64,000 nt of DNA from an uncultured Bacillota bacterium (GTDB lineage: Bacteria > Bacillota_I > Bacilli_A > RFN20 > CAG-288): NCBI GenBank assembly GCA_949282275.1, contig CASDOO010000035.1, positions 13,625 to 77,624 on the forward strand, read 5' to 3'. How positions within the stretch are numbered: position 1 is the stretch's first letter; each line of letters begins with the position of its first letter. The notes beneath the pieces are model-generated. The model ran no database searches and was not told the origin of the DNA. It saw nothing but the letters and a program-made list of their open reading frames with translations. A program made the position numbers and the translations under genes. Shown piece after piece: positions 55,169 to 64,000 of this stretch.

Positions 55169-55972
55169 CTATTTTCCCTTTGACAGATGGATGGCGTTCA
55201 TCACTAGGCAATAGGACGTCAGGACGCCGACGCCGCCGGGAACGGGGGTATAGCCGGAGATTGTTTCCTCTTCCGGAACGAAGCCGAGGTCTCCCTTGCC
55301 GTCGTCTTGGAAGCCGCAGTCGATGATGAAAGGCTTCCTTGCAAGATCCTCTTTGGAAAGCAGGCCCCTCTTGCCGCTTGCCAGGAAGATGACATCGCTT
55401 TCCCGGGCTTCCTTTTTTATGCTTGCGGGGTCGATGCGGGAATGTACCTGGACGATAAGGCCGTTTTCATGGCTGACGAGGGCATAGAGGGGAAGGCCGA
55501 TTGTCCGGCTGCGGCCGATGACAAGACACTTTTTCCCTTTCAGTTCGATATGGTAATGCCTCAGGATCAAAAGGACGCTTTGCGCCGTCGCCGGCAGGTA
55601 GTCCATGTCGCCAAGAAGCATCCGTCCGACGTTCCTTTCCGTCGTCATGTCCGGGTCGTGGTCCGGATTGATGGCATCGAGAAAGGCCTTCTCGTTGTCG
55701 ATGGCTAGCGGGCGGGCAAGGATGGTCTGGCTTTCCTTGGCCTTCCTTTCGAAACGCCTGAGGCTTGCCTTGACATCCGTCCTGTCCAGGAAGTCCTCTT
55801 CGTAGGGAATCGAGAAACGCTCCAGCGCTTTCTTGACGCCCCGGAGGTAATAGAATGCCGAGGAATCCTCCCGGTCGGAAAAAAGATAGAACTGAAGGTC
55901 CTTCTTCGGGATTTCCCGTTCGATCCGCTCGATTAGCAGGGGGCGGACGTCCTTTCCGGAGAGGATGGTCAT
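55169..55972 (-). CDS. folD: Bifunctional methylene-THF dehydrogenase / methenyl-THF cyclohydrolase
   Basis: 267 aa from ATG 55972 (MTILSGKDV...). 'VIGRSRTIGLP', 'TPVPGGVGVLT'. ATGA overlap with fhs. Confidence 0.9.
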   Translation of the reverse strand: MTILSGKDVRPLLIERIEREIPKKDLQFYLFSDREDSSAFYYLRGVKKALERFSIPYEEDFLDRTDVKASLRRFERKAKESQTILARPLAIDNEKAFLDAINPDHDPDMTTERNVGRMLLGDMDYLPATAQSVLLILRHYHIELKGKKCLVIGRSRTIGLPLYALVSHENGLIVQVHSRIDPASIKKEARESDVIFLASGKRGLLSKEDLARKPFIIDCGFQDDGKGDLGFVPEEETISGYTPVPGGVGVLTSYCLVMNAIHLSKGK

Positions 55973-57561
55973 CTTCCCATCCTCTTTGCCAGGGGAACCT
56001 TCGGAAGCCCGGGCATGGTGACGATCGATCCCGTCAGCGGGACGAGGAATCCCGCCCCGTGGAAGAGGCGGAGATCCTTGACATGGAGCATGTGCCTTGG
56101 GACGTTGAGGCGCTTGGGATCGTCGCTCAGGGAAGTCGGGGTCTTGCTGATGCAGACATGGAAGCACCTTTCCTCTTCCGTGATGGCATGGAGCCTTTTC
56201 AGGACTTCCTCGTCGTAAATGACGCCATCGGCGCCATAGGCCTTCCTGGCAATCGTTTCGATCTTCTCAAAGACGTCCATGGAATCGTCGACAATAGGAT
56301 GGAAGTCTTTCTCGTTCTTCTCGAGGATGGCGACGGTCTTTTGGGCAAGGTCGAGGGCACCCTCGGGTCCATCCTCGTAGGAAGTGCAGAGGGAGAAGGG
56401 GATTCCTTTCTCTTCCAGGATGGCGGAGAGGCAATCGATTTCCGTCTTGTCGTCGGTCGGGAAACGGTTGATGCAGACGAGGACGGGAAGGCCGTATTGG
56501 CGGGCGTTCTGGACATGGAAGAGCAGGTTCGGGATGCCTTTTTCGAGACTTTCGCAATCCTTTTCCTGGAGATTCTCGAAGGCGACGCCGCCATGAAGCT
56601 TGAGGGCACGGACGGAGCAGACCAGGATGACAAGGTCCGGGGAGAAGCCTTGGATGGGCGAGACGATGTCCAGGTATTTTTCCATCCCGAGGTCGCTTCC
56701 GAATCCCGCCTCCGTGACGACATAGTCGGCAAGGCGAAGGGACAGGTCGCTGGCGATGATGGAATTGGTGCCGTGGGCGATGTTGGCGAAGGGACCGCCA
56801 TGGAGGATGGCAGGCGTGCCATGGCTTGTCCTGACGAGATTGGGAAGGAGGGCTTTTTGGATAAGCTTCCGGATGGCCTCACGGATATCGAGGTCCTTGA
56901 CAAGGATGTCCTTGCCTTGACGGGACTTGGCGACGAGGATGTTCTCCGTCCTGTCCAGGAAATCCTCGATGTCCCGGCTCAGGCAGAAGATGGCCATCAG
57001 TTCGCTGGCCGCGGTGATGACGAAGGAGGAGAAGTGCCTTGGCCCTTCCTTCTCTCCGAGACAGGTCTCGATATGACGCAGGGAACGGTCGTTCATGTCC
57101 AGCGCACGGGGAAAGACGACGCTTTCCGGGTCGATGTCCAGGGGACTGTCCTGGAAGATCTCGTTGTCCACCATGGCGGCAATGAGGTTGTTGACGCTGG
57201 TGAGGGCATGGATGTCGCCGGTGAAGTGGAGATTGATTTCCTCTTCCGGGAGAAGCCTTTCCTTGCCGCCTCCCGTTCCGCCGCCCTTGAGACCGAAGAC
57301 GGGTCCCATGGAAGGCTCGCGAAGACAGGCCAGTGCCTTCTTTCCGATACGGTAAAGGCCATCGGCAAGTCCGATTGCCGTCGTCGTCTTTCCTTCGCCG
57401 GCCTTCGTCGGGGTAATTGCGGTCGTCAGGATAAGCTTTCCCCTTCTCGGCCTTTTTCCTGCGTCAAGGTCGAGCTTTGCGCACTCCCTTCCGTAGGGAA
57501 GGACTTCCTCGGGTGAAAGGCCAAGCGAGGCAAGGATTCTTTCCAATTCATTTTGGGACAT
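55969..57561 (-). CDS. fhs: Formate-tetrahydrofolate ligase
   Basis: 'TAITPTKAGEGKTTTAIGL', 'GGPFANIAHG'. 530 aa. Confidence 0.95.
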   Translation of the reverse strand: MSQNELERILASLGLSPEEVLPYGRECAKLDLDAGKRPRRGKLILTTAITPTKAGEGKTTTAIGLADGLYRIGKKALACLREPSMGPVFGLKGGGTGGGKERLLPEEEINLHFTGDIHALTSVNNLIAAMVDNEIFQDSPLDIDPESVVFPRALDMNDRSLRHIETCLGEKEGPRHFSSFVITAASELMAIFCLSRDIEDFLDRTENILVAKSRQGKDILVKDLDIREAIRKLIQKALLPNLVRTSHGTPAILHGGPFANIAHGTNSIIASDLSLRLADYVVTEAGFGSDLGMEKYLDIVSPIQGFSPDLVILVCSVRALKLHGGVAFENLQEKDCESLEKGIPNLLFHVQNARQYGLPVLVCINRFPTDDKTEIDCLSAILEEKGIPFSLCTSYEDGPEGALDLAQKTVAILEKNEKDFHPIVDDSMDVFEKIETIARKAYGADGVIYDEEVLKRLHAITEEERCFHVCISKTPTSLSDDPKRLNVPRHMLHVKDLRLFHGAGFLVPLTGSIVTMPGLPKVPLAKRMGR

Positions 57562-59107
57562 TTTCGCTCTCCTCCATTTTTCTTAGCAAAAGACTGACGA
57601 TCCCAAGCCCGCCGGCATTGACGACAGGCGCTATCGAGCCGATTGTTTTTTCGTTTGGAAGGCCCTTTCGTTTGGCATCCTTCGGATAAACGACAAGGAT
57701 GTTCTTTCCTTCTTCCTCAAGACCTTCCTTGCTTATGGCAGAAAGGAAGTTCCTTGAGAGCGGATCGGTCATCTCCGAAAGCTTTCCGTAGGACACCTTC
57801 GTGGAATCGACGTGGAAGCCAAAACCGGCGCTGGTGATGAAAAGGCTCTTATCCGTGAGGGACTTTTTAAAGAGTGAGACCTTTCCCGTAACGTCATCGA
57901 TGCAGTCGAGGATGACGTCCTTCCTTTCGCATTGGAACAAGGCATCGATGTTTTCCTTTCGTGCCCTGATGTCGAGAAGGGGATTGATTTTCCTTGCCCT
58001 GTCGATGGCGGCGTCGACCTTGTCCCTTCCGAGGTCGTCGAGGGTATAGAGGATCTGGCGGTTGAGGTTTGTCGCGTCGACCTTGTCCTTGTCCACGATT
58101 TCGATGTTCTGGAAACCGAGACGGACGAGGGCTTCCAAAACGCTTCCGCCCACGCCCCCGATGCCGGCAAGGAGGATTCTCTTGCCTTCGATCTCCTTCT
58201 TGAGCCGGGAGAGAAGGATGCCCGTCCTTTGGCGAAGGAGGATGTGGTCGGCAATCCTCTTTTCGATTTCCGCCTTCGGAAGGGCGATGGCCTCCGGGAA
58301 CTGATGCCTCAGGAAGGTGCGCTGCTTCTTGGCATATTGGTGCGTATGGACCTTGATGTCCTCCTTTGCCTTGGATAGGGGAATGTTGTCCTTCCTTGCC
58401 TGAATGAGTTCCCGATAGCCGAGGGAACGGAAGGCGTAGAGATCCTCGGGATATTTGCCAAGAAGGGCATCGACTTCCTCGGGAAAGCCTTCCTCGAACA
58501 TCCTGTCGACGCGTTCGTCGATCTTCCTGTTTCCTTCCTCCTTGTCGATGTCGATGCGGAAGAAGAGGGTCGGGAAAAGCGGCTCCTTCGGGGTCGACTC
58601 GAGGATTTCCTCCCGGCTGTGGCCACAGTGGATCTGTTCCAAAGCCCTCTTGACGCGACGGGGGTTATGGATGTCGATGCTCTCGTAGGTCTTCCTTGAA
58701 AGCCGCAGAAGCTCTTCTTGCATCCTCTCGAGGCTCCAGTCCTCGTAGGGACTTGCCCCATCCTCTTCCCCATAGAAGCGATAGCCGTAGAGAAGGGCCT
58801 TGATGTAAAGGAAAGTCCCGCCGACGACAAGGACGTCCTGTCCCCTTTCCACGTAGTCCCTAAGAAGGGGAAGGCATTCTTCCTGGAAGCGGGAAACATT
58901 CATCGCATCGTCGGGATCGTATTCGTCGTAGAAGTGGTAGGCGATGCCCGCCACGTCTTCCCTTTTCGGCTTGTCCGTTCCGATCTGCATCATCTTGTAG
59001 CATTGGTAGGCATCGGCAGAAAAGACGGGCATGTGAAAGCGTCTTGCCAAGGAGAGGGCAAGGGACGTCTTTCCGCTGGCAGTCTGTCCCAGGATGACGT
59101 AGATCAA
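57548..59107 (-). CDS. miaA: Fusion protein: tRNA dimethylallyltransferase (MiaA) N-terminal domain plus a ThiF/TcdA-like (t6A37 dehydratase family) C-terminal domain
   Basis: 519 aa from TTG 59107, with ggagg 7 nt upstream and a TTGA overlap with the mutL stop. MiaA motifs 'ILGQTASGKTSLA', 'SADAYQCYKMMQIGTDKP', 'QYAKKQRTF'. Then 'ILLAGIGGVGGSVLEALVRLG...VDKDKVDATNLNRQI' and 'DPLSRNFL', aligning with E. coli TcdA. There is no stop codon between the halves. Confidence 0.8.
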   Translation of the reverse strand: MIYVILGQTASGKTSLALSLARRFHMPVFSADAYQCYKMMQIGTDKPKREDVAGIAYHFYDEYDPDDAMNVSRFQEECLPLLRDYVERGQDVLVVGGTFLYIKALLYGYRFYGEEDGASPYEDWSLERMQEELLRLSRKTYESIDIHNPRRVKRALEQIHCGHSREEILESTPKEPLFPTLFFRIDIDKEEGNRKIDERVDRMFEEGFPEEVDALLGKYPEDLYAFRSLGYRELIQARKDNIPLSKAKEDIKVHTHQYAKKQRTFLRHQFPEAIALPKAEIEKRIADHILLRQRTGILLSRLKKEIEGKRILLAGIGGVGGSVLEALVRLGFQNIEIVDKDKVDATNLNRQILYTLDDLGRDKVDAAIDRARKINPLLDIRARKENIDALFQCERKDVILDCIDDVTGKVSLFKKSLTDKSLFITSAGFGFHVDSTKVSYGKLSEMTDPLSRNFLSAISKEGLEEEGKNILVVYPKDAKRKGLPNEKTIGSIAPVVNAGGLGIVSLLLRKMEESENVPK

Positions 59108-60987
59108 AATCCGGACCTCCGGAATATCTTGTCGACATCTTCGCGCGTGATCTTGATGAGCGTCGGCCTTCCGTGCGGGCAGTTTGCCGGATTGACGCAC
59201 TTGGCGAGGTCCTTGATCAAAGCCTCCATTTCCGCAAGGGAGAGGACCTGGTTTGCCTTGATGGATTTCTTGCAGGCGATGCTGGCGATGTCCAGGCGCA
59301 TCAAACGGATGGGGTCGGCCTTTTCGCCGTTGAGGACGGAATGGACGCAATCCTCGATGATGGGGAGATAGTCCGGGTCGGAAAGGAAGGAGGGAATCTC
59401 CTTGATGACGATCGTCCTGTCCCCGAAGGGCTCGACGAGAATGCCGCTTGCAAGAAGACGGGCGACATGTTCCTCGTCGAAATTCTCCTGCTCCTTGAAG
59501 GAAAGCTCCAGGACGGATGGGATGAGGGGGACGACGCGGGAACGCACGGAAGCGAAAAGACGTTCCGTCTTCTCGAAGTTTATCCTTTCCTGGGCAGCAT
59601 GCTGGTCGATAAGGTAGAAGCCATCGAAAGCGTCGCAGACGATGAAGGTCTTCAGCACCTGGCCGATGGGGTGCATCTGGGGGAGGGCGCCGGTATAGCC
59701 ATCCTCACGGAAAATATCCTCGAATCCTTTGCCGGCACTTGCCTTTGGCTTAGGCAGGTCCATGTCTTCCGTTTCCTTTGACGAATTCGAAATCGGCTTT
59801 ACGGGAAGAGGCGCTTCATAGCTTGGCGTGTCCGGAATGGAGTCCTGGAAGTAGATCTTCTCCTCCTTCAGAGGCCTGCCATCGACAAAAGCCTCTTTCG
59901 CCTTCTTTTCCTCCTCTTCCTTGAGATCGTCGATGTCGAAGGCGTCAAGGCCGAGGTCGTTTTGCGTCTTGCTGTCGCTTGCGGAGTCGTAGAGAGGCCT
60001 TTTTCCCTGCAACGTGGAAAGAAGGCATTCCTTGAGCTCTTGGGCCATCTCGTTTTCCATCGAGATGCGGACTTCCTTCTTCGTCGGATGGACGTTGACA
60101 TCCACCAGGGCAGGATCGATTTCCATGTGGATGACGGAGAAAGGATAGCGAAGGGGAGGGAGGTAGTCCCGATAGGCCTCCTCGATCGCCTTCTGGATGC
60201 GGTAGTCGTAGATGCACCGGCCATTGAGGAAAAGGAGCTGGTTGTATTTCTTGGAATAGCTCAGCTCCGGCTTTCCGACAAAGCCGTGGAAGGAGAAGTA
60301 GAGGCCTTCCTTCCTTATTTCGTAGAGGGAAGGGACGATGCGGTTTCCATAGATCTTCTGGATGGCCTCAAGCAGGTCTCCCCTTCCCGTGGTGCGGAAG
60401 ATTTCCTTCCCGTCGACGGAGAGGGCGATAGCGACATCCGGAAAGCCCAAGGCAAGATGCTCGGCCATTTCGATGATGGCATAGGTCTCGACCTTGTCCG
60501 ACTTGAGGTACTTGAGACGGGCCGGCGTGTTGAAGAAGAGGCTGCTGACCTCGAAGATGGTCCCTTTCCTGTCGGGAGCGTCCAGGACGACGAGTTCCGA
60601 ATCGGGCGTGCTTTCGACGCGCGTTCCGATGCCGCTTCCGTTTCCGGTCGTCATCGTGATGCGGCTGACGCTGGCGATGGAGGGGATGGCCTCGCCGCGG
60701 AAGCCCATTGTCTTGATGCGGTTGAGGTCGAACTCGCTTCTTATCTTGCTGGAGGCATGCCGCAAAAAGCACATCCTCGCATCCTCGCGGTCCATGCCGC
60801 AGCCGTCGTCGCGGACAAGGATCTTTCCCTTTCCGGAATCGGCGATGCCGATGTAGATGTTCCGGCTCTTGGCGTCGATGGCGTTCTCCACGAGCTCCTT
60901 GACGACGCTTGCCGGCCTTTCGATGACTTCTCCGGCAGCGATGAGGTTGGAGAGCTCCGGCTTCATCAGATGGATCGTTGCCATCAT
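59104..60987 (-). CDS. mutL: DNA mismatch repair protein MutL
   Basis: GHKL ATPase N-terminus 'IAAGEVIERPASVVKELVENAIDA', 'DDGCGM', 'GFRGEAIPSI'. 627 aa. Confidence 0.96.
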   Translation of the reverse strand: MMATIHLMKPELSNLIAAGEVIERPASVVKELVENAIDAKSRNIYIGIADSGKGKILVRDDGCGMDREDARMCFLRHASSKIRSEFDLNRIKTMGFRGEAIPSIASVSRITMTTGNGSGIGTRVESTPDSELVVLDAPDRKGTIFEVSSLFFNTPARLKYLKSDKVETYAIIEMAEHLALGFPDVAIALSVDGKEIFRTTGRGDLLEAIQKIYGNRIVPSLYEIRKEGLYFSFHGFVGKPELSYSKKYNQLLFLNGRCIYDYRIQKAIEEAYRDYLPPLRYPFSVIHMEIDPALVDVNVHPTKKEVRISMENEMAQELKECLLSTLQGKRPLYDSASDSKTQNDLGLDAFDIDDLKEEEEKKAKEAFVDGRPLKEEKIYFQDSIPDTPSYEAPLPVKPISNSSKETEDMDLPKPKASAGKGFEDIFREDGYTGALPQMHPIGQVLKTFIVCDAFDGFYLIDQHAAQERINFEKTERLFASVRSRVVPLIPSVLELSFKEQENFDEEHVARLLASGILVEPFGDRTIVIKEIPSFLSDPDYLPIIEDCVHSVLNGEKADPIRLMRLDIASIACKKSIKANQVLSLAEMEALIKDLAKCVNPANCPHGRPTLIKITREDVDKIFRRSGF

Positions 60988-63524
60988 TTCACCTTCTTCT
61001 TGAGGTCGAAGAGGAAGTTGAGTGCCTCAAGCGGGGACATGGTCATCGGGTCGAGCTTCTTGAGCGCCTCGGCGATGGGATCTTCCTTCGGCCTTTCCGG
61101 AACGATTTCCCGGATCTGGTCCTTCCTTACCCGATCCTCGCTTTCGAAGGAGGCAAGAAGCTCGCCTGCCCGGGAGACGACTTCCATGGGAAGTCCGGCA
61201 AGCTTTGCCACGTTGATGCCATAGGAACGGTCCATCGATCCTTCCTTCATCTTGTAGAGGAAGGTGACGTTTCCGTTCTCCTCGCGAACGTCGCAATGGA
61301 TGTTCCGGCAGGCTTTTATCTTCTGGCTGAGCTTGGTGATTTCGTGGTAGTGCGTCGAGAAGAAGGTCTTGCAGTGGACTTTCTCCACGATGTATTCGAT
61401 GATGCTTTCGGCAATGGCCATGCCATCGAAGGTCGCCGTTCCCCTGCCAATCTCGTCGAAGAGGAAGAGGGAGGAAGAAGTGGCCTCCTCCAATGCCTGG
61501 GCGACCTCGCTCATCTCCGTCATGAAGGTGGACTGGCCCTTGATGAGGTTGTCCGAGGCGCCGATCCGGGTATAGAGGGCATCGAAGACGGGAAGATTGC
61601 AGGACTCGGCCGGGACATAGGAACCGATCTGGGCAAGGATGGCAATGAGGCCGAATTCCTTCATGTAGGTGGATTTTCCGCCCATGTTCGGGCCGGTGAT
61701 GATGAGGACGTCCGTATCCTTGTCCATGCGGTAGTCGTTGGCGACGAAGAGCGTCTCCGGCGAGGCGACCTCGATGATCGGATGCCTAGCGGAACGGATG
61801 TCGATCGTTCCGTCGTGGGTGAAATGCGGGCGGACGTAGCCATGCTCGCTGGCGACGAAGGCCAGGGAGAGATAGTAGTCCAAAAGGGCCAGGCTTTCGC
61901 TTGTCCTCTGGATCCTTTCGGTATGGACGGAAACGCGTTTGCGCAGCTCCTTGAAGAGACGGTATTCCAGGCTTGTCTTCTCGTCGCGGGCGCGGAGGAT
62001 CCGGTCTTCCCGTTCCTTGAGTTCCTGGGTGATGAACCTTTCGCCCGTCTTCAGGGTCTGCTTCCGAATATAGCCGAATTCCGGCTTGACCTCCTTGACC
62101 TGTCCGGCACTGACTTCGATGTAGTAGCCAAAGACCGTGTTGTATCCGACGCGAAGTGTCTTGATGCCGGTCCGTTCCTTTTCCTTGGCCTCAAGGGAGG
62201 CAATCCAGGTCTTGTCGTCGCTTGTCAGGTCGATGAGCTCGTCCAGGCGCGGATCATAGCCACGCTTGAAAATCTCGCCTTCGGTGATAGTCAATGGACA
62301 GTCCTCGCGGATGGCGCTTTCAAGAAGCCGGACGAGATCGGCATAGTCGCCGACGTTCGAGGCAAGCTCGTTTATCGGTGCGATTTGGCAAAGCGGGGCA
62401 AGATCCTTGACGACTTGCGGGAGGACGGAAAGGGACCTTTTGAGCTGCAGAAGGTCGTGTCCGTTGCAGTTCTCGTATCCCATGCGGGCGATGAGCCTCT
62501 CCATGTCGAAGATGTTCGAAAGGTCCTCGCGCAGCTTTTCGCGGACGACATAGTTCTCGATGAAGGCGCCGGTCATGTCCAGGGAGCGCTCGATTTCCTT
62601 CTCGTCGGCCATCGGGGCGACGATGCGGTTCTTGAGATAGCGGCTTCCCATCGGCGTCTTCGTCTTGTCCAGAAGCCAGAAGAGCGTGCCGAAGGTCTTT
62701 CCCTCCAGGCTCTTGACCAGTTCCATATTGCTCTGGGCGGAATAGTCGACGCGCATTCGCTTCTCGCCCATGAGGTTCTTGACAGGCTTGAAATAGTCCA
62801 GGGGACGCTTTTCCATGCTCGTGAGGTAGTTGTAGAGGCGGGCACAGCAGTCGACCTGCCTTTCGTCCTTGAGGTTGACGAAGAGGGATTCCATCTCGAT
62901 GGATGTCGAGGCATCGTTGAAATAGGAGATCGGGACCTGGGAATTGTTCTTGATATAGAGAATCGTCTGGCTGTCGAAGGAAGTCGGGACGACCAATTCC
63001 TTGATATCCAGGAAAAGCAGTTCTTCCAGTATCCTCTCCCTTGTCGGTTCGATGTTGAGGGAGAACATCTCTCCGGTCGTCAAGTCGGCATAGCTGACGA
63101 CGGCGAGTTTCCCATAGATGCCAAGGGAGGCGATATAGTTGCTGGCCTTGTCGTTGATGTCGAGGTTTGCGCCTGGGGAGATGATCTGGATGACGTCCCT
63201 CTTCACGAGCTTCTTGGTGAGCTTGGGGTCCTCGACCTGCTCGCAGATGGCGACCTTGTAGCCGCGGTCGACGAGCTTCTGGGCATAGGAAAGATAGGCC
63301 CTGTGGGGAATGCCGCACATCGGTATCTTCTTCCCGTTTCCGCAGGACTTGGCCGTCAGGAAAAGCTGAAGCTCCTTGGAACAGATCTGGGCATCGTCGA
63401 GGAACATCTCGTAGAAGTCGCCAATGCGGAAAAAGAGGATGATGTCCCCGTATTGCCTCTTGAAGCTGAGGTACTGCTCCACCATGGGAGTGAACGATTC
63501 TTCTTTCTTTTCTTTCATTGTCAT
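60984..63524 (-). CDS. mutS: DNA mismatch repair protein MutS
   Basis: 'TPMVEQY', 'FFRIGDFYEMF', Walker A 'GPNMGGKSTYM', 'STFMTEM', 'DEIGRGT'. The start is ATG 63524 or ATG 63518, and the latter has better RBS spacing. Confidence 0.96.
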   Translation of the reverse strand: MTMKEKKEESFTPMVEQYLSFKRQYGDIILFFRIGDFYEMFLDDAQICSKELQLFLTAKSCGNGKKIPMCGIPHRAYLSYAQKLVDRGYKVAICEQVEDPKLTKKLVKRDVIQIISPGANLDINDKASNYIASLGIYGKLAVVSYADLTTGEMFSLNIEPTRERILEELLFLDIKELVVPTSFDSQTILYIKNNSQVPISYFNDASTSIEMESLFVNLKDERQVDCCARLYNYLTSMEKRPLDYFKPVKNLMGEKRMRVDYSAQSNMELVKSLEGKTFGTLFWLLDKTKTPMGSRYLKNRIVAPMADEKEIERSLDMTGAFIENYVVREKLREDLSNIFDMERLIARMGYENCNGHDLLQLKRSLSVLPQVVKDLAPLCQIAPINELASNVGDYADLVRLLESAIREDCPLTITEGEIFKRGYDPRLDELIDLTSDDKTWIASLEAKEKERTGIKTLRVGYNTVFGYYIEVSAGQVKEVKPEFGYIRKQTLKTGERFITQELKEREDRILRARDEKTSLEYRLFKELRKRVSVHTERIQRTSESLALLDYYLSLAFVASEHGYVRPHFTHDGTIDIRSARHPIIEVASPETLFVANDYRMDKDTDVLIITGPNMGGKSTYMKEFGLIAILAQIGSYVPAESCNLPVFDALYTRIGASDNLIKGQSTFMTEMSEVAQALEEATSSSLFLFDEIGRGTATFDGMAIAESIIEYIVEKVHCKTFFSTHYHEITKLSQKIKACRNIHCDVREENGNVTFLYKMKEGSMDRSYGINVAKLAGLPMEVVSRAGELLASFESEDRVRKDQIREIVPERPKEDPIAEALKKLDPMTMSPLEALNFLFDLKKKVK

Positions 63525-63530
63525 GTTCCT

Positions 63531-63842
63531 CTAGAGACGGAAATCCGACAGCGGCCTGAGGAGGTCGAGGAGTTCTTCCTTGCACGATCGCAGGTTGACG
63601 ACCAGGGGATCTTCCTCGTATTCCCGGTAGAGGGATTTCGCCTTCTCAAGCATGGCCTCCTTGTTGGGTGTTGGAAGAAGACGGGCCTTTTTCTGCAGGG
63701 CCCTGGATTCCTCAAGGAGCAAGGCGAGGCGCCTGTCCTCTTCCACGGCCTTCTTCAGGGCAAGATAGCGCCTTGTCTCCGAAAGCTCCCGGAAATCCCG
63801 GAGGAGATTGTCGATCTTATCGAGAAGCTCCCTTTCAGTCAT
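63531..63842 (-). CDS. ymcA: YlbF/YmcA-family protein (RicA-like)
   Basis: 103 aa from ATG 63842 (MTERELLDKIDNL...). All-helical and located between miaB and mutS, as B. subtilis ymcA is. The upstream track extension is Ser/Arg-rich junk overlapping miaB. Confidence 0.65.
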   Translation of the reverse strand: MTERELLDKIDNLLRDFRELSETRRYLALKKAVEEDRRLALLLEESRALQKKARLLPTPNKEAMLEKAKSLYREYEEDPLVVNLRSCKEELLDLLRPLSDFRL

Positions 63843-64000
63843 CCAGGAGTTCTCCGACGAGGGAATAGGTGTGGCTTTCGAGGATCTTGACCTTCCGGAT
63901 CTGCCCGATGAGGGAAGGATCGCCCGTGACGTGGACGAGCTTTCCATGACGGTCATAGCCCGAGATTCTATTCTGGTCCCGGCGCGAGACCGTCTCGAAA
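63835..64000 (-). CDS. miaB: MiaB-like methylthiotransferase, 3' end only (TRAM domain), truncated by the window edge
   Basis: Hand translation of the minus strand gives '...GYDRHGKLVHVTGDPSLIGQIRKVKILESHTYSLVGELLDD*'. This fits a TRAM-domain C-terminus. The position upstream of ymcA-mutS matches B. subtilis ymcB. Confidence 0.6.
   Translation of the reverse strand, partial: FETVSRRDQNRISGYDRHGKLVHVTGDPSLIGQIRKVKILESHTYSLVGELLDD

Follow-up and report, generated by a model that had tools for sequence, protein, structure and literature searches.

TsaN of Pandoravirus salinus is a natural fusion with the order TsaD-TsaC-SUA5-TcdA (8IDE), a multi-domain enzyme of the A37 pathway that ends in a TcdA module, and this TcdA domain dimerises the whole protein (PMC10484737). 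TsaN joins consecutive steps, the formation of t6A and then of ct6A, and its substrates are free nucleosides or nucleotides rather than tRNA. In yeast Tcd1 and Tcd2 (9HMP; PMC13139853), a TcdA-family ThiF domain with the essential Asp is also accompanied by extra domains, but these enzymes form heterodimers anchored in the membrane, have an HNH-like domain at the C-terminus and contain no MiaA module. For comparison in bacteria, we used E. coli TcdA/CsdL (4D79, 4D7A, 4RDH, 4YED; COG1179) and the MiaA proteins of E. coli (2zm5, 3foz), S. epidermidis (3d3q) and B. halodurans (3exa).

In a window of 64,000 nucleotides from an uncultured Bacillota bacterium (the whole stretch analysed, from contig CASDOO010000035.1), one gene encodes a MiaA domain followed by a TcdA-type domain. 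Like TsaN, it is a natural fusion with TcdA at its C-terminal end; unlike TsaN, it joins the enzymes of two parallel pathways that work on different tRNAs. It is a natural "Rosetta-stone" link of the i6A/ms2i6A and t6A/ct6A pathways, which are normally treated as independent. The sequence-only reading knew of no described fusion of the two, and indeed no published description of a MiaA-TcdA fusion was found in the literature searched, although the architecture turned out to be common among public MAG proteins. Where a source gives these proteins a name, it is just MiaA, an annotation gap by which the ct6A capacity of these gut lineages would be overlooked. The fusion is undescribed but departs only modestly from known enzymes and is not a new kind of system; the chemistry expected of it is already known.

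The fused gene and its neighbours

The gene is located at 57548-59107 on the minus strand (519 codons plus stop) and is read through 519 residues without a stop. A single unbroken ORF joining MiaA to a TcdA/ThiF-like part had been proposed from the letters alone, and it is borne out by the translation, by full-length homologues that are conserved and by Pfam; the HMM domain assignment suggested as a check gave both IPPT and ThiF. The start codon is TTG, which shares the tetranucleotide TTGA with the mutL stop (an overlap of 4 nt; the mutL product ends in RRSGF). Upstream of it the minus strand (reverse complement of 59100-59130) reads GGAGG TCCGGAT TTG ATC TAC, with a spacer of 7 nt between GGAGG and TTG, and the 3' end of the gene shares 14 nt with fhs. 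The TTG start within TTGA, the GGAGG at 7 nt and the 14-nt overlap had been given before, without the strand, and are seen in the sequence.

Immediately upstream is mutL (59104-60987, minus strand; Pfam DNA_mis_repair and MutL_C), whose start is overlapped by 4 nt by mutS (60984-63524, minus strand; identified by its ORF and translation, the syntenic gene of the relative L111 having the MutS_I-V domains). Immediately downstream is fhs, the gene for formate-tetrahydrofolate ligase (55969-57561, minus strand; PF01268, E 1.6e-198), and its stop is overlapped by 4 nt by the ATG of a folD-like gene (55169-55972, minus strand; PF02882, E 1.3e-32), for which the syntenic L111 gene has both FolD domains. 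The E. coli arrangement, which we take to be mutL-miaA-hfq, likewise has miaA directly after mutL; here the fusion is followed by fhs and folD instead of hfq. Upstream of mutS there is a YmcA/YlbF-family gene (63531-63956, minus strand, coordinates converted from contig numbering; PF06133, E 1.3e-9). The same cluster also contains miaB, of which the 3' end lies in the window (63835-64000, minus strand) and the rest runs off it to about 65289. Its product of 484 aa, with UPF0004, Radical_SAM and TRAM domains, scores 486.8 bits on TIGR01574 against a cut-off of 355.3. MiaB converts the MiaA product to ms2i6A37.

The two halves and their junction

The MiaA domain, assigned as tRNA A37 dimethylallyltransferase, covers residues 1-275 (58283-59107, minus strand). 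That the N-terminal half is MiaA had already been read from its motifs, and the profiles and the fold show that it is complete. The MiaA equivalog model TIGR00174 gives 187 bits against a cut-off of 148.65 over model positions 3-278 of 288, while IPPT (PF01715) matches residues 35-269 with E 5.6e-56 over the whole model (1-243 of 243). The motifs include the P-loop GQTASGKT (residues 7-14), D32/Q35, N148 and R151, and YAKKQRT (residues 258-264), and in 30 fusion proteins G7, T9-K13, D32, Q35, N148, R151, K260 and Q262-T264 are invariant. The predicted structure has the two-domain MiaA fold, a core with a helical insertion. Foldseek matched it to 2zm5 and 3foz with TMt 0.81-0.82, and the match to 2zm5_A, the E. 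coli MiaA-tRNA complex, has a TMt of 0.82 and an rmsd of 3.2 Å over 303 columns (E 3e-20). P-loop, motifs and fold are thus like those of the MiaA proteins named above, whereas here about 230 extra residues at the C-terminus make up an entire TcdA-type enzyme.

This second domain, a TcdA-family E1-like domain, occupies residues 309-519 (57548-58183, minus strand). The earlier reading expected it to match ThiF/TcdA profiles, and this held for ThiF (PF00899 on residues 303-511, E 1e-33) but not for the NCBI TcdA model NF011696, on which it scores 60-63 bits (62.6) under a cut-off of 304. The model is narrow, as clearly TcdA-like standalone proteins of Bacillota (103-153 bits) and the standalone TcdA of relatives (135-148 bits) also fall below the cut-off, but the fused domain is markedly lower still. 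The nearest standalone relatives are about 225 aa long, score best on the TcdA model and, where named, are called tRNA threonylcarbamoyladenosine dehydratase.

The wider claim of a TcdA-like C-terminal domain is upheld by PDB matches, fold, trees and motifs. The best PDB sequence matches are the TcdA domain of TsaN (E 4e-18), yeast Tcd1 and E. coli TcdA, with ThiF and MoeB lower. The alignment reaches E. coli residue 184 and so spans the TcdA-only segment (E. coli residues 170-189), which blocks the ThiS/MoaD surface (PMC4405576). By Foldseek, the domain in the predicted model matches E. coli TcdA (4d7a) with TMt 0.84-0.85, rmsd 2.2-2.4 Å over 237 columns and E 1e-17, as compared with a TM of 0.64-0.69 for ThiF and MoeB (MoeB 0.69, E 5e-10; ThiF 0.65). 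In trees that contained no genuine PRK08644-type ThiF sequence, the fused domain falls inside the TcdA clade and is split from ThiF, MoeB and P0227 with 98-100% SH-aLRT; within that clade the fused domains form their own group, which has a long stem and is distinct from the canonical standalone proteins of the same order.

The motifs quoted in the sequence-only reading, LAGIGGVGGSV (residues 312-322), VDKDKVDATNLNRQI and DPLSRNFL, were all found. The ATP loop is G315-x-GGVG320, and D339, R350 and K363 are spaced by 11 and 13 residues, the same as D61, R72 and K85 of E. coli, whose ATP-binding roles, together with that of Asn69, have been described (PMC4405576, PMC10484737). D404 aligns with E. 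coli D130, the essential catalytic Asp that corresponds to D188 of yeast Tcd2 (PMC13139853). Further motifs are N347/N349, D-S-T-K and D-P-L (matched to D-P-T-Q and D-P-L in E. coli) and a C-terminal G-S-x-x-x-V-x-x-x-G. The GxGGVG loop, D339, N347, R350, K363 and D404, which include the equivalents of E. coli D61, N69, R72, K85 and D130, do not vary among 30 fusion proteins with identities as low as 36%, and the motif alignment showed neither the Cys4 zinc motif nor the CxxC pairs of ThiF/MoeB in the domain.

Fold, GxGGVG loop, D-R-K spacing, catalytic Asp, DPL segment and the lack of Cys4 are therefore common to the domain and E. coli TcdA, to which it is about 26% identical. It differs in being compact, without the disordered Cys-containing loop (E. 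coli residues ~205-240), and in belonging to a separate miaA-linked subclade with MiaA joined at the N-terminus. In E. coli a requirement for CsdA/CsdE is also known. Judged by sequence and modelled fold, the domain is a diverged member of the TcdA branch of the E1-like superfamily. A TcdA as compact as this, with about 215 residues and without the Cys loop, would be useful for studying the mechanism of ct6A formation, which is still poorly understood.

The junction covers residues 276-308 (58184-58282, minus strand), near the place where it had been expected (about 58150-58250). The AF2 model of the whole protein has pLDDT 92.5 and pTM 0.88, and the junction is predicted as one long helix (residues 278-308, pLDDT above 90), in which the C-terminal helix of MiaA continues straight into the N-terminal R-T-x-x-L helix of TcdA. 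When the fusion is aligned to split MiaA and TcdA proteins, the halves directly abut without any added linker, and the length of the junction is nearly constant across the family, with almost no gaps in the alignment of 30 fusion proteins. Both halves are under purifying selection, with dN/dS of about 0.1: the ratio is 0.11-0.14 for the MiaA half and 0.11-0.22 for the TcdA half, or 0.14 and 0.11 respectively against a relative with 82% identity.

Distribution and origin

Among the best 120 protein clusters, 66 have the same two-domain architecture with 36-98% identity, including a 519-aa protein from another assembly that is 98% identical. A survey of related genomes, which had been proposed along with the first description, showed that the fusion is common in the genus (23 of 45 sampled genomes) and in the rest of the family (14 of 21), giving 37 of 66 sampled family genomes overall, while the closest relatives have separate overlapping genes. 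Of 32 fusion genomes, 8 also retain canonical standalone TcdA genes, one or two each (G123, for instance, has the fusion and two of them), and the other 24, the source genome among them, contain no other ThiF-family gene.

The split pairs of related uncultured Bacilli (L111, L112-L114, L105) encode the same two proteins at the same locus, but as two polypeptides. Their miaA and tcdA overlap by 8-17 nt, in identical synteny, or are separated by 4 nt, the locus being mutS-mutL-miaA-tcdA-fhs-folD, and the fused state differs from them by the reading frame at the gene overlap; in the tree, the fusion clade has the split form P0364 as its sister. Since the closest relatives have overlapping split genes at the same locus, the fusion arose by a one-base frame change that merged miaA and tcdA, translationally coupled neighbours in this conserved operon. 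In f2, another family of the same order, mutL and fhs flank miaA and a canonical TcdA gene that begins 4 nt behind it, and the fused domain therefore descends from a bona fide tcdA. Within a single order of uncultured Bacilli with small genomes, the miaA-tcdA link thus takes the form of adjacent genes, of overlapping genes and of fusions in at least two clades. Such recurrence suggests that selection favours the co-expression or physical association of enzymes acting at position 37.

Proposed function and alternative readings

We infer, with a probability of about 0.74, that the fusion is a bifunctional tRNA position-37 enzyme that makes i6A37 and ct6A37 on different sets of tRNAs. The MiaA module would transfer a dimethylallyl group to A37 of UNN-reading tRNAs (A36-A37-A38) to form i6A, which the nearby MiaB may turn into ms2i6A. 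The TcdA-type module would activate t6A37 of ANN-reading tRNAs (U36-A37), adenylating its threonine carboxylate with ATP, and cyclise it to ct6A. As the modules would serve different tRNAs, the fusion may mainly ensure equimolar co-expression, with some possible benefit beyond it. Because TcdA enzymes are dimers, a putative TcdA dimer core probably presents two MiaA modules. Synthesis of ct6A is put as a proposal because the domain has diverged from canonical TcdA and canonical standalone TcdA is kept in 8 of the 32 fusion genomes; the missing Cys-containing loop and a top NCBIfam match to a ThiF model also speak against it.

Other explanations differ mostly in what they make of the C-terminal domain. 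An assembly or sequencing artefact that joined two genes might be imagined, as the split overlapping genes of close relatives differ only by reading frame and the genome is a MAG, 84% complete; such an origin is excluded by the wide conservation of the open frame in the 66 clusters and 37 family genomes, the 98%-identical protein included, and by the conserved junction length. An adenylyltransferase of the ThiF/MoeB type, activating a sulfur carrier for thiamine, molybdopterin or thionucleoside synthesis, is a highly improbable identity for the domain. Its top NCBIfam matches are indeed the ThiF models PRK08644 (92-94 bits) and TIGR02356 (84-87 bits), but these scores miss the cut-offs of 159 and 275, as they do for all ThiF/MoeB models, and are no higher than those of TcdA-like standalone proteins on the same two models (83-113 bits). 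Besides, the domain goes with TcdA in both tree and fold, CxxC zinc motifs are lacking, the segment that blocks the ThiS/MoaD surface is present (PMC4405576), and no ThiS/MoaD was found in the genome (no ThiS-family match over the cut-off, the best being 15.9 bits inside a 735-aa frame). That the domain is catalytically silent and does no more than help MiaA, as a scaffold, to dimerise or to bind tRNA is very unlikely too. TcdA proteins are tRNA-binding dimers (PMC4405576), yeast Tcd1 is an ATP-binding-defective TcdA paralogue that acts as a partner subunit (PMC13139853), and the pTM of 0.88 suggests a fixed arrangement of the two domains, yet a pure scaffold would not be expected to keep all ATP-binding and catalytic residues invariant in 30 proteins or to have a dN/dS as low as that of MiaA.

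The domain could also be a TcdA-derived paralogue with a different ATP-dependent adenylation function, the link with MiaA being a new functional dependence; its substrate might be a different A37 derivative with a carboxylate, such as ms2t6A or hn6A, or else another tRNA or a small molecule. We regard this as unlikely, but several results fit it: the long-stem clade of the fused domains, the score of 62.6 bits against 135-148 in canonical relatives, the canonical TcdA retained in 8 of 32 fusion genomes, a redundancy if both proteins did the same thing, and the invariant ATP-binding residues, so that some adenylation chemistry would be kept. It agrees less well with the 24 fusion genomes that have no other ThiF-family gene, with the retained TcdA-specific segments and C-terminal motif, with the TcdA fold match over nearly the whole chain, and with the canonical TcdA found at the same place after miaA in family f2; moreover, i6A and ms2i6A have no carboxylate for E1-type activation, as is established chemistry. 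A related and similarly doubtful idea is that the whole miaA-linked TcdA subclade, fused or overlapping, is no longer a plain ct6A synthase but a functionally distinct partner of MiaA. This partner would be either a "position-37 hub", in which a TcdA-dimer core with two MiaA modules would bind anticodon stem-loops of any kind and direct each tRNA to one of the two active sites according to nucleotide 36, or an enzyme that adenylates a new substrate related to A37. If true, either version would explain why canonical standalone TcdA is kept beside the fusion in some genomes.

For the preferred reading, a bifunctional position-37 enzyme, we summarized substrates and partners in the source genome, an MAG of a small-genome, gut-type lineage of uncultured Bacilli. 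The modification ct6A is non-essential, and gene content therefore does not tell whether it is present. This genome has no ThiF-family gene and no IPPT gene besides the fusion, and it also contains the t6A synthesis genes TsaD, TsaB and TsaC/Sua5. Ten tRNAs have U36-A37, and five have A36A37A38, namely Cys(GCA), Leu(UAA), Phe(GAA), Ser(UGA) and Trp(CCA).

Gene structure and operon context

The gene on the minus strand at 57548-59107 is translated without a stop into 519 residues, in which MiaA (residues 1-275) is followed by a TcdA-family, E1-like C-domain (residues 309-519). The sequence-only reading had described a single ORF joining MiaA to a TcdA/ThiF-like domain, and the domain searches agree with it: the entire IPPT model of Pfam covers residues 35-269 (E 5.6e-56), ThiF covers residues 303-511 (E 1e-33), and the MiaA equivalog of NCBIfam is passed (187 bits; cut-off 148.65). 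AlphaFold2, given 30 family members, models the protein confidently over its full length (pLDDT 92.5, pTM 0.88), and a single long helix (residues 278-308) bridges the two halves. Using Foldseek, we matched the N-terminal half to the E. coli MiaA-tRNA complex (TMt 0.82) and the C-terminal half to E. coli TcdA (TMt 0.84-0.85, rmsd 2.2-2.4 Å, 237 columns, E about 1e-17), with MoeB (0.69, E 5e-10) and ThiF (0.65) well below TcdA.

The reverse complement of 59100-59130 reads GGAGG-TCCGGAT-TTG-ATC-TAC, that is, GGAGG, 7 nt and then the TTG start, and the tetranucleotide TTGA is common to this start and the mutL stop. Since the homologues in the family alignment start with MIYVILGQTASGKT, the TTG in TTGA is the start of the fusion, and an upstream TTG at 59350 is ruled out by their N-termini. 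At the 3' end, the gene overlaps fhs (55969-57561, minus strand) by 14 nt, so the start site, ribosome-binding site and fhs overlap proposed earlier are all borne out. The mutS/mutL, mutL/fusion and fhs/folD junctions (55169-63524, minus strand) overlap by 4 nt each, and because of this tight packing, together with the 14-nt overlap, mutS-mutL-miaA::tcdA-fhs-folD looks like one translationally coupled operon, which would unite genes of DNA mismatch repair, tRNA modification and one-carbon metabolism. The order mutS-mutL-miaA-tcdA-fhs-folD is found again in two relatives with split genes (L111 and L105). In the FolD-like protein (55169-55972), the C-terminal NAD(P)-binding domain PF02882 is the sole Pfam match at E <= 1e-5, and the N-terminal catalytic domain PF00763 has no match at this threshold; the N-terminal domain may have diverged.

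Distribution and origin of the fusion

In a search of 5.8 billion protein clusters, 66 of the best 120 matches have the IPPT+ThiF architecture. These proteins come from many assemblies, are 482-527 aa long (all but one 507-527) and range in identity from 98% to 36%; about 10 full-length fusion representatives are left at 50% clustering. Fused and separate genes, which the sequence-only reading had proposed to compare among related genomes, were surveyed in 301 genomes of the order. The window's genus has the uninterrupted fusion in 23 of its 45 surveyed genomes, the rest of the family in 14 of 21, and a different family in two genomes; in a class-wide sample, none of 399 other genomes has it. 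Against an 82%-identical relative, dN/dS is 0.14 for MiaA and 0.11 for TcdA. The same architecture across the assemblies and genomes surveyed and such low ratios exclude an artefact at the level of the family. A locus search with the P-loop among its patterns mostly returned ordinary MiaA genes, together with at least five fusion loci (L007-L011).

Two other hits deserve a remark. P0252 (361 aa, from the 50% clustering) opens like peptidyl-tRNA hydrolase (MKLIVGLGNPG...) and continues with the C-terminal third of MiaA and a full TcdA domain, which points either to a chimera from assembly or gene calling or to a fusion that has been rearranged. L012 (CAVCCX010000002.1) is a contig from a record titled Bacteroides uniformis, and its MiaA shares 56% identity with the window's Bacilli protein; as congeners of the source genome show the same level, this contig has probably been mis-binned.

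P0364 and P0124, the standalone proteins most closely related to the C-domain, are encoded directly 3' of miaA, which their genes overlap in another frame by 17 nt and 8 nt respectively, with the same synteny as the fusion (mutS-mutL-miaA-tcdA-fhs-folD-ABC/FtsX). A different family of the order encodes, between mutL and fhs, a miaA followed after 4 nt by the gene of a canonical TcdA, which scores 148 bits on the TcdA model. When split and fused forms are aligned, the join is end to end with nothing gained or lost, and the C-terminal helix of MiaA continues as the R-T-x-x-L helix at the N-terminus of TcdA. The main fusion clade has split P0364 as its sister in the tree (96%), and a second small fusion clade (G211, G293 and P0247) stands apart from it with moderate supports (86-87). 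This placement asks for at least two fusion or fission events, and a single origin of all fusions is not supported.

Among about 8.4 million papers and preprints searched, none was found to describe a bifunctional enzyme of the MiaA-TcdA or MiaA-ThiF type, and the sequence-only reading, too, knew of no described fusion of the two. TcdA fusions known so far comprise TsaN (PMC10484737) and the yeast Tcd proteins with their C-terminal HNH-like domain (PMC13139853), and the present proteins, where named by their source, are labelled simply MiaA or tRNA dimethylallyltransferase. It is a real, conserved and undescribed domain fusion of two known enzymes.

Identity of the C-domain

In sequence comparison with the PDB, the C-domain comes closest to TsaN (TcdA domain), yeast Tcd1 and E. 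coli TcdA (E 4e-18 to 1e-15), and ThiF and MoeB rank behind them (1e-12). The alignment to E. coli TcdA reaches residue 184, within segment 170-189, the sole element of TcdA without a counterpart in MoeB/ThiF (López-Estepa et al., PMC4405576). Motif alignment gives a glycine loop of the TcdA type (GGVG), N-x-N-R-Q versus Q-R-Q in ThiF/MoeB, D339/R350/K363 spaced 11 and 13 residues apart, as are D61/R72/K85 of E. coli and D803/R814/K827 of TsaN, and D404 as the counterpart of the essential Asp D130 of E. coli. Besides, the D-S-T-K and D-P-L of the TcdA family are present, the C-terminal G-S-x-x-x-V-x-x-x-G (family consensus G-S..VP..G) is common to standalone TcdA proteins, and the CxxC pairs of the zinc motif in ThiF/MoeB are absent. 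Across 30 fusion proteins, with identity down to 36%, all of these residues are invariant. In trees, the fused domains fall inside a TcdA clade, which is split, at SH-aLRT supports of 98-100%, from E. coli ThiF/MoeB and from P0227, a ThiF-like control.

The profile scores are less straightforward, as the fused domain reaches a low 62.6 bits on the NCBI TcdA model and its top NCBIfam match is the ThiF model PRK08644 (94 bits, under the cut-off of 159). A 'fam2 ThiF' identity was judged by score comparison alone, as the trees contain no genuine PRK08644-type ThiF sequence. Standalone TcdA-like proteins of relatives, taken as control, score 103-153 bits on the TcdA model and 83-113 on PRK08644, which indicates that the fused domain lost TcdA-specific score and did not gain ThiF likeness. 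As a top match, PRK08644 can mislead for compact TcdA domains: many TcdA-like proteins reach 83-113 bits on it, yet in 149 genomes of the phylum and 14 control genomes the model, searched as NF006395, has no match over E 1e-45. PDB ranking, fold, motifs and trees agree with the TcdA-type assignment made earlier, the low model score notwithstanding, and on these comparisons the fused domain is a diverged TcdA.

Proposed function and genome context

The reading we favour, with a probability of roughly 0.74, is a bifunctional enzyme, whose N-module would make i6A37 on UNN-reading tRNAs, whose C-module would adenylate and cyclise t6A37 to ct6A37 on ANN-reading tRNAs, and in which fusion would fix the expression of both modules at 1:1. 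Since TcdA (PMC4405576) and TsaN (PMC10484737) dimerise via the TcdA domain, the protein is probably a dimer bearing two MiaA modules; we infer this dimer and both enzymatic activities.

The rival, that the C-domain has changed its function, seems rather unlikely to us, and the distribution of standalone genes gives it some room. Non-fusion members of the window's genus have miaA alone and a canonical standalone tcdA at some other place (in G047, for instance, at a distance of 80 kb), so that the idea of a standalone tcdA adjoining miaA in these congeners was rejected. In the fusion genomes, 24 of 32 have no other ThiF-family gene, while eight (G123, at loci L092 and L093, G160, G162, G170, G096, G176, G002 and G023) keep one or two canonical standalone tcdA genes beside the fusion, and a perfectly complementary distribution is thus rejected. 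These standalones are of two sequence types (MLNQYSRT... and MDQFSRT...), so that a genome of 1.5-2.2 Mb can contain as many as three TcdA paralogues. It is their retention and the departure of the fused domain from canonical TcdA that leave room for a changed function. In genus g7 of the same family (G111, G136, G146 and G158), MiaA is encoded and no TcdA-family gene is detectable, which suggests a loss of ct6A capacity within the family.

For the bifunctional enzyme, the source genome (a 1.5-Mb, 84%-complete MAG) offers the following context. The fusion is its sole ThiF-family gene and its sole IPPT gene; TsaD, TsaB and TsaC/Sua5 are encoded, and no ThiS/MoaD is detectable in this 84%-complete assembly. 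The 34 parsed tRNAs include five MiaA substrates with A36-A37-A38 and ten t6A substrates with U36-A37. Directly upstream of mutS lie a YmcA/YlbF-family gene and miaB (63531-64000 and beyond; to 79199 on the window's own contig, locus L110), the latter overrunning the window end. This MiaB passes the TIGR01574 equivalog (486.8 bits; cut-off 355.3), therefore the i6A-to-ms2i6A branch is complete and clustered, and the locus would bring together enzymes for i6A, ms2i6A and probably ct6A.
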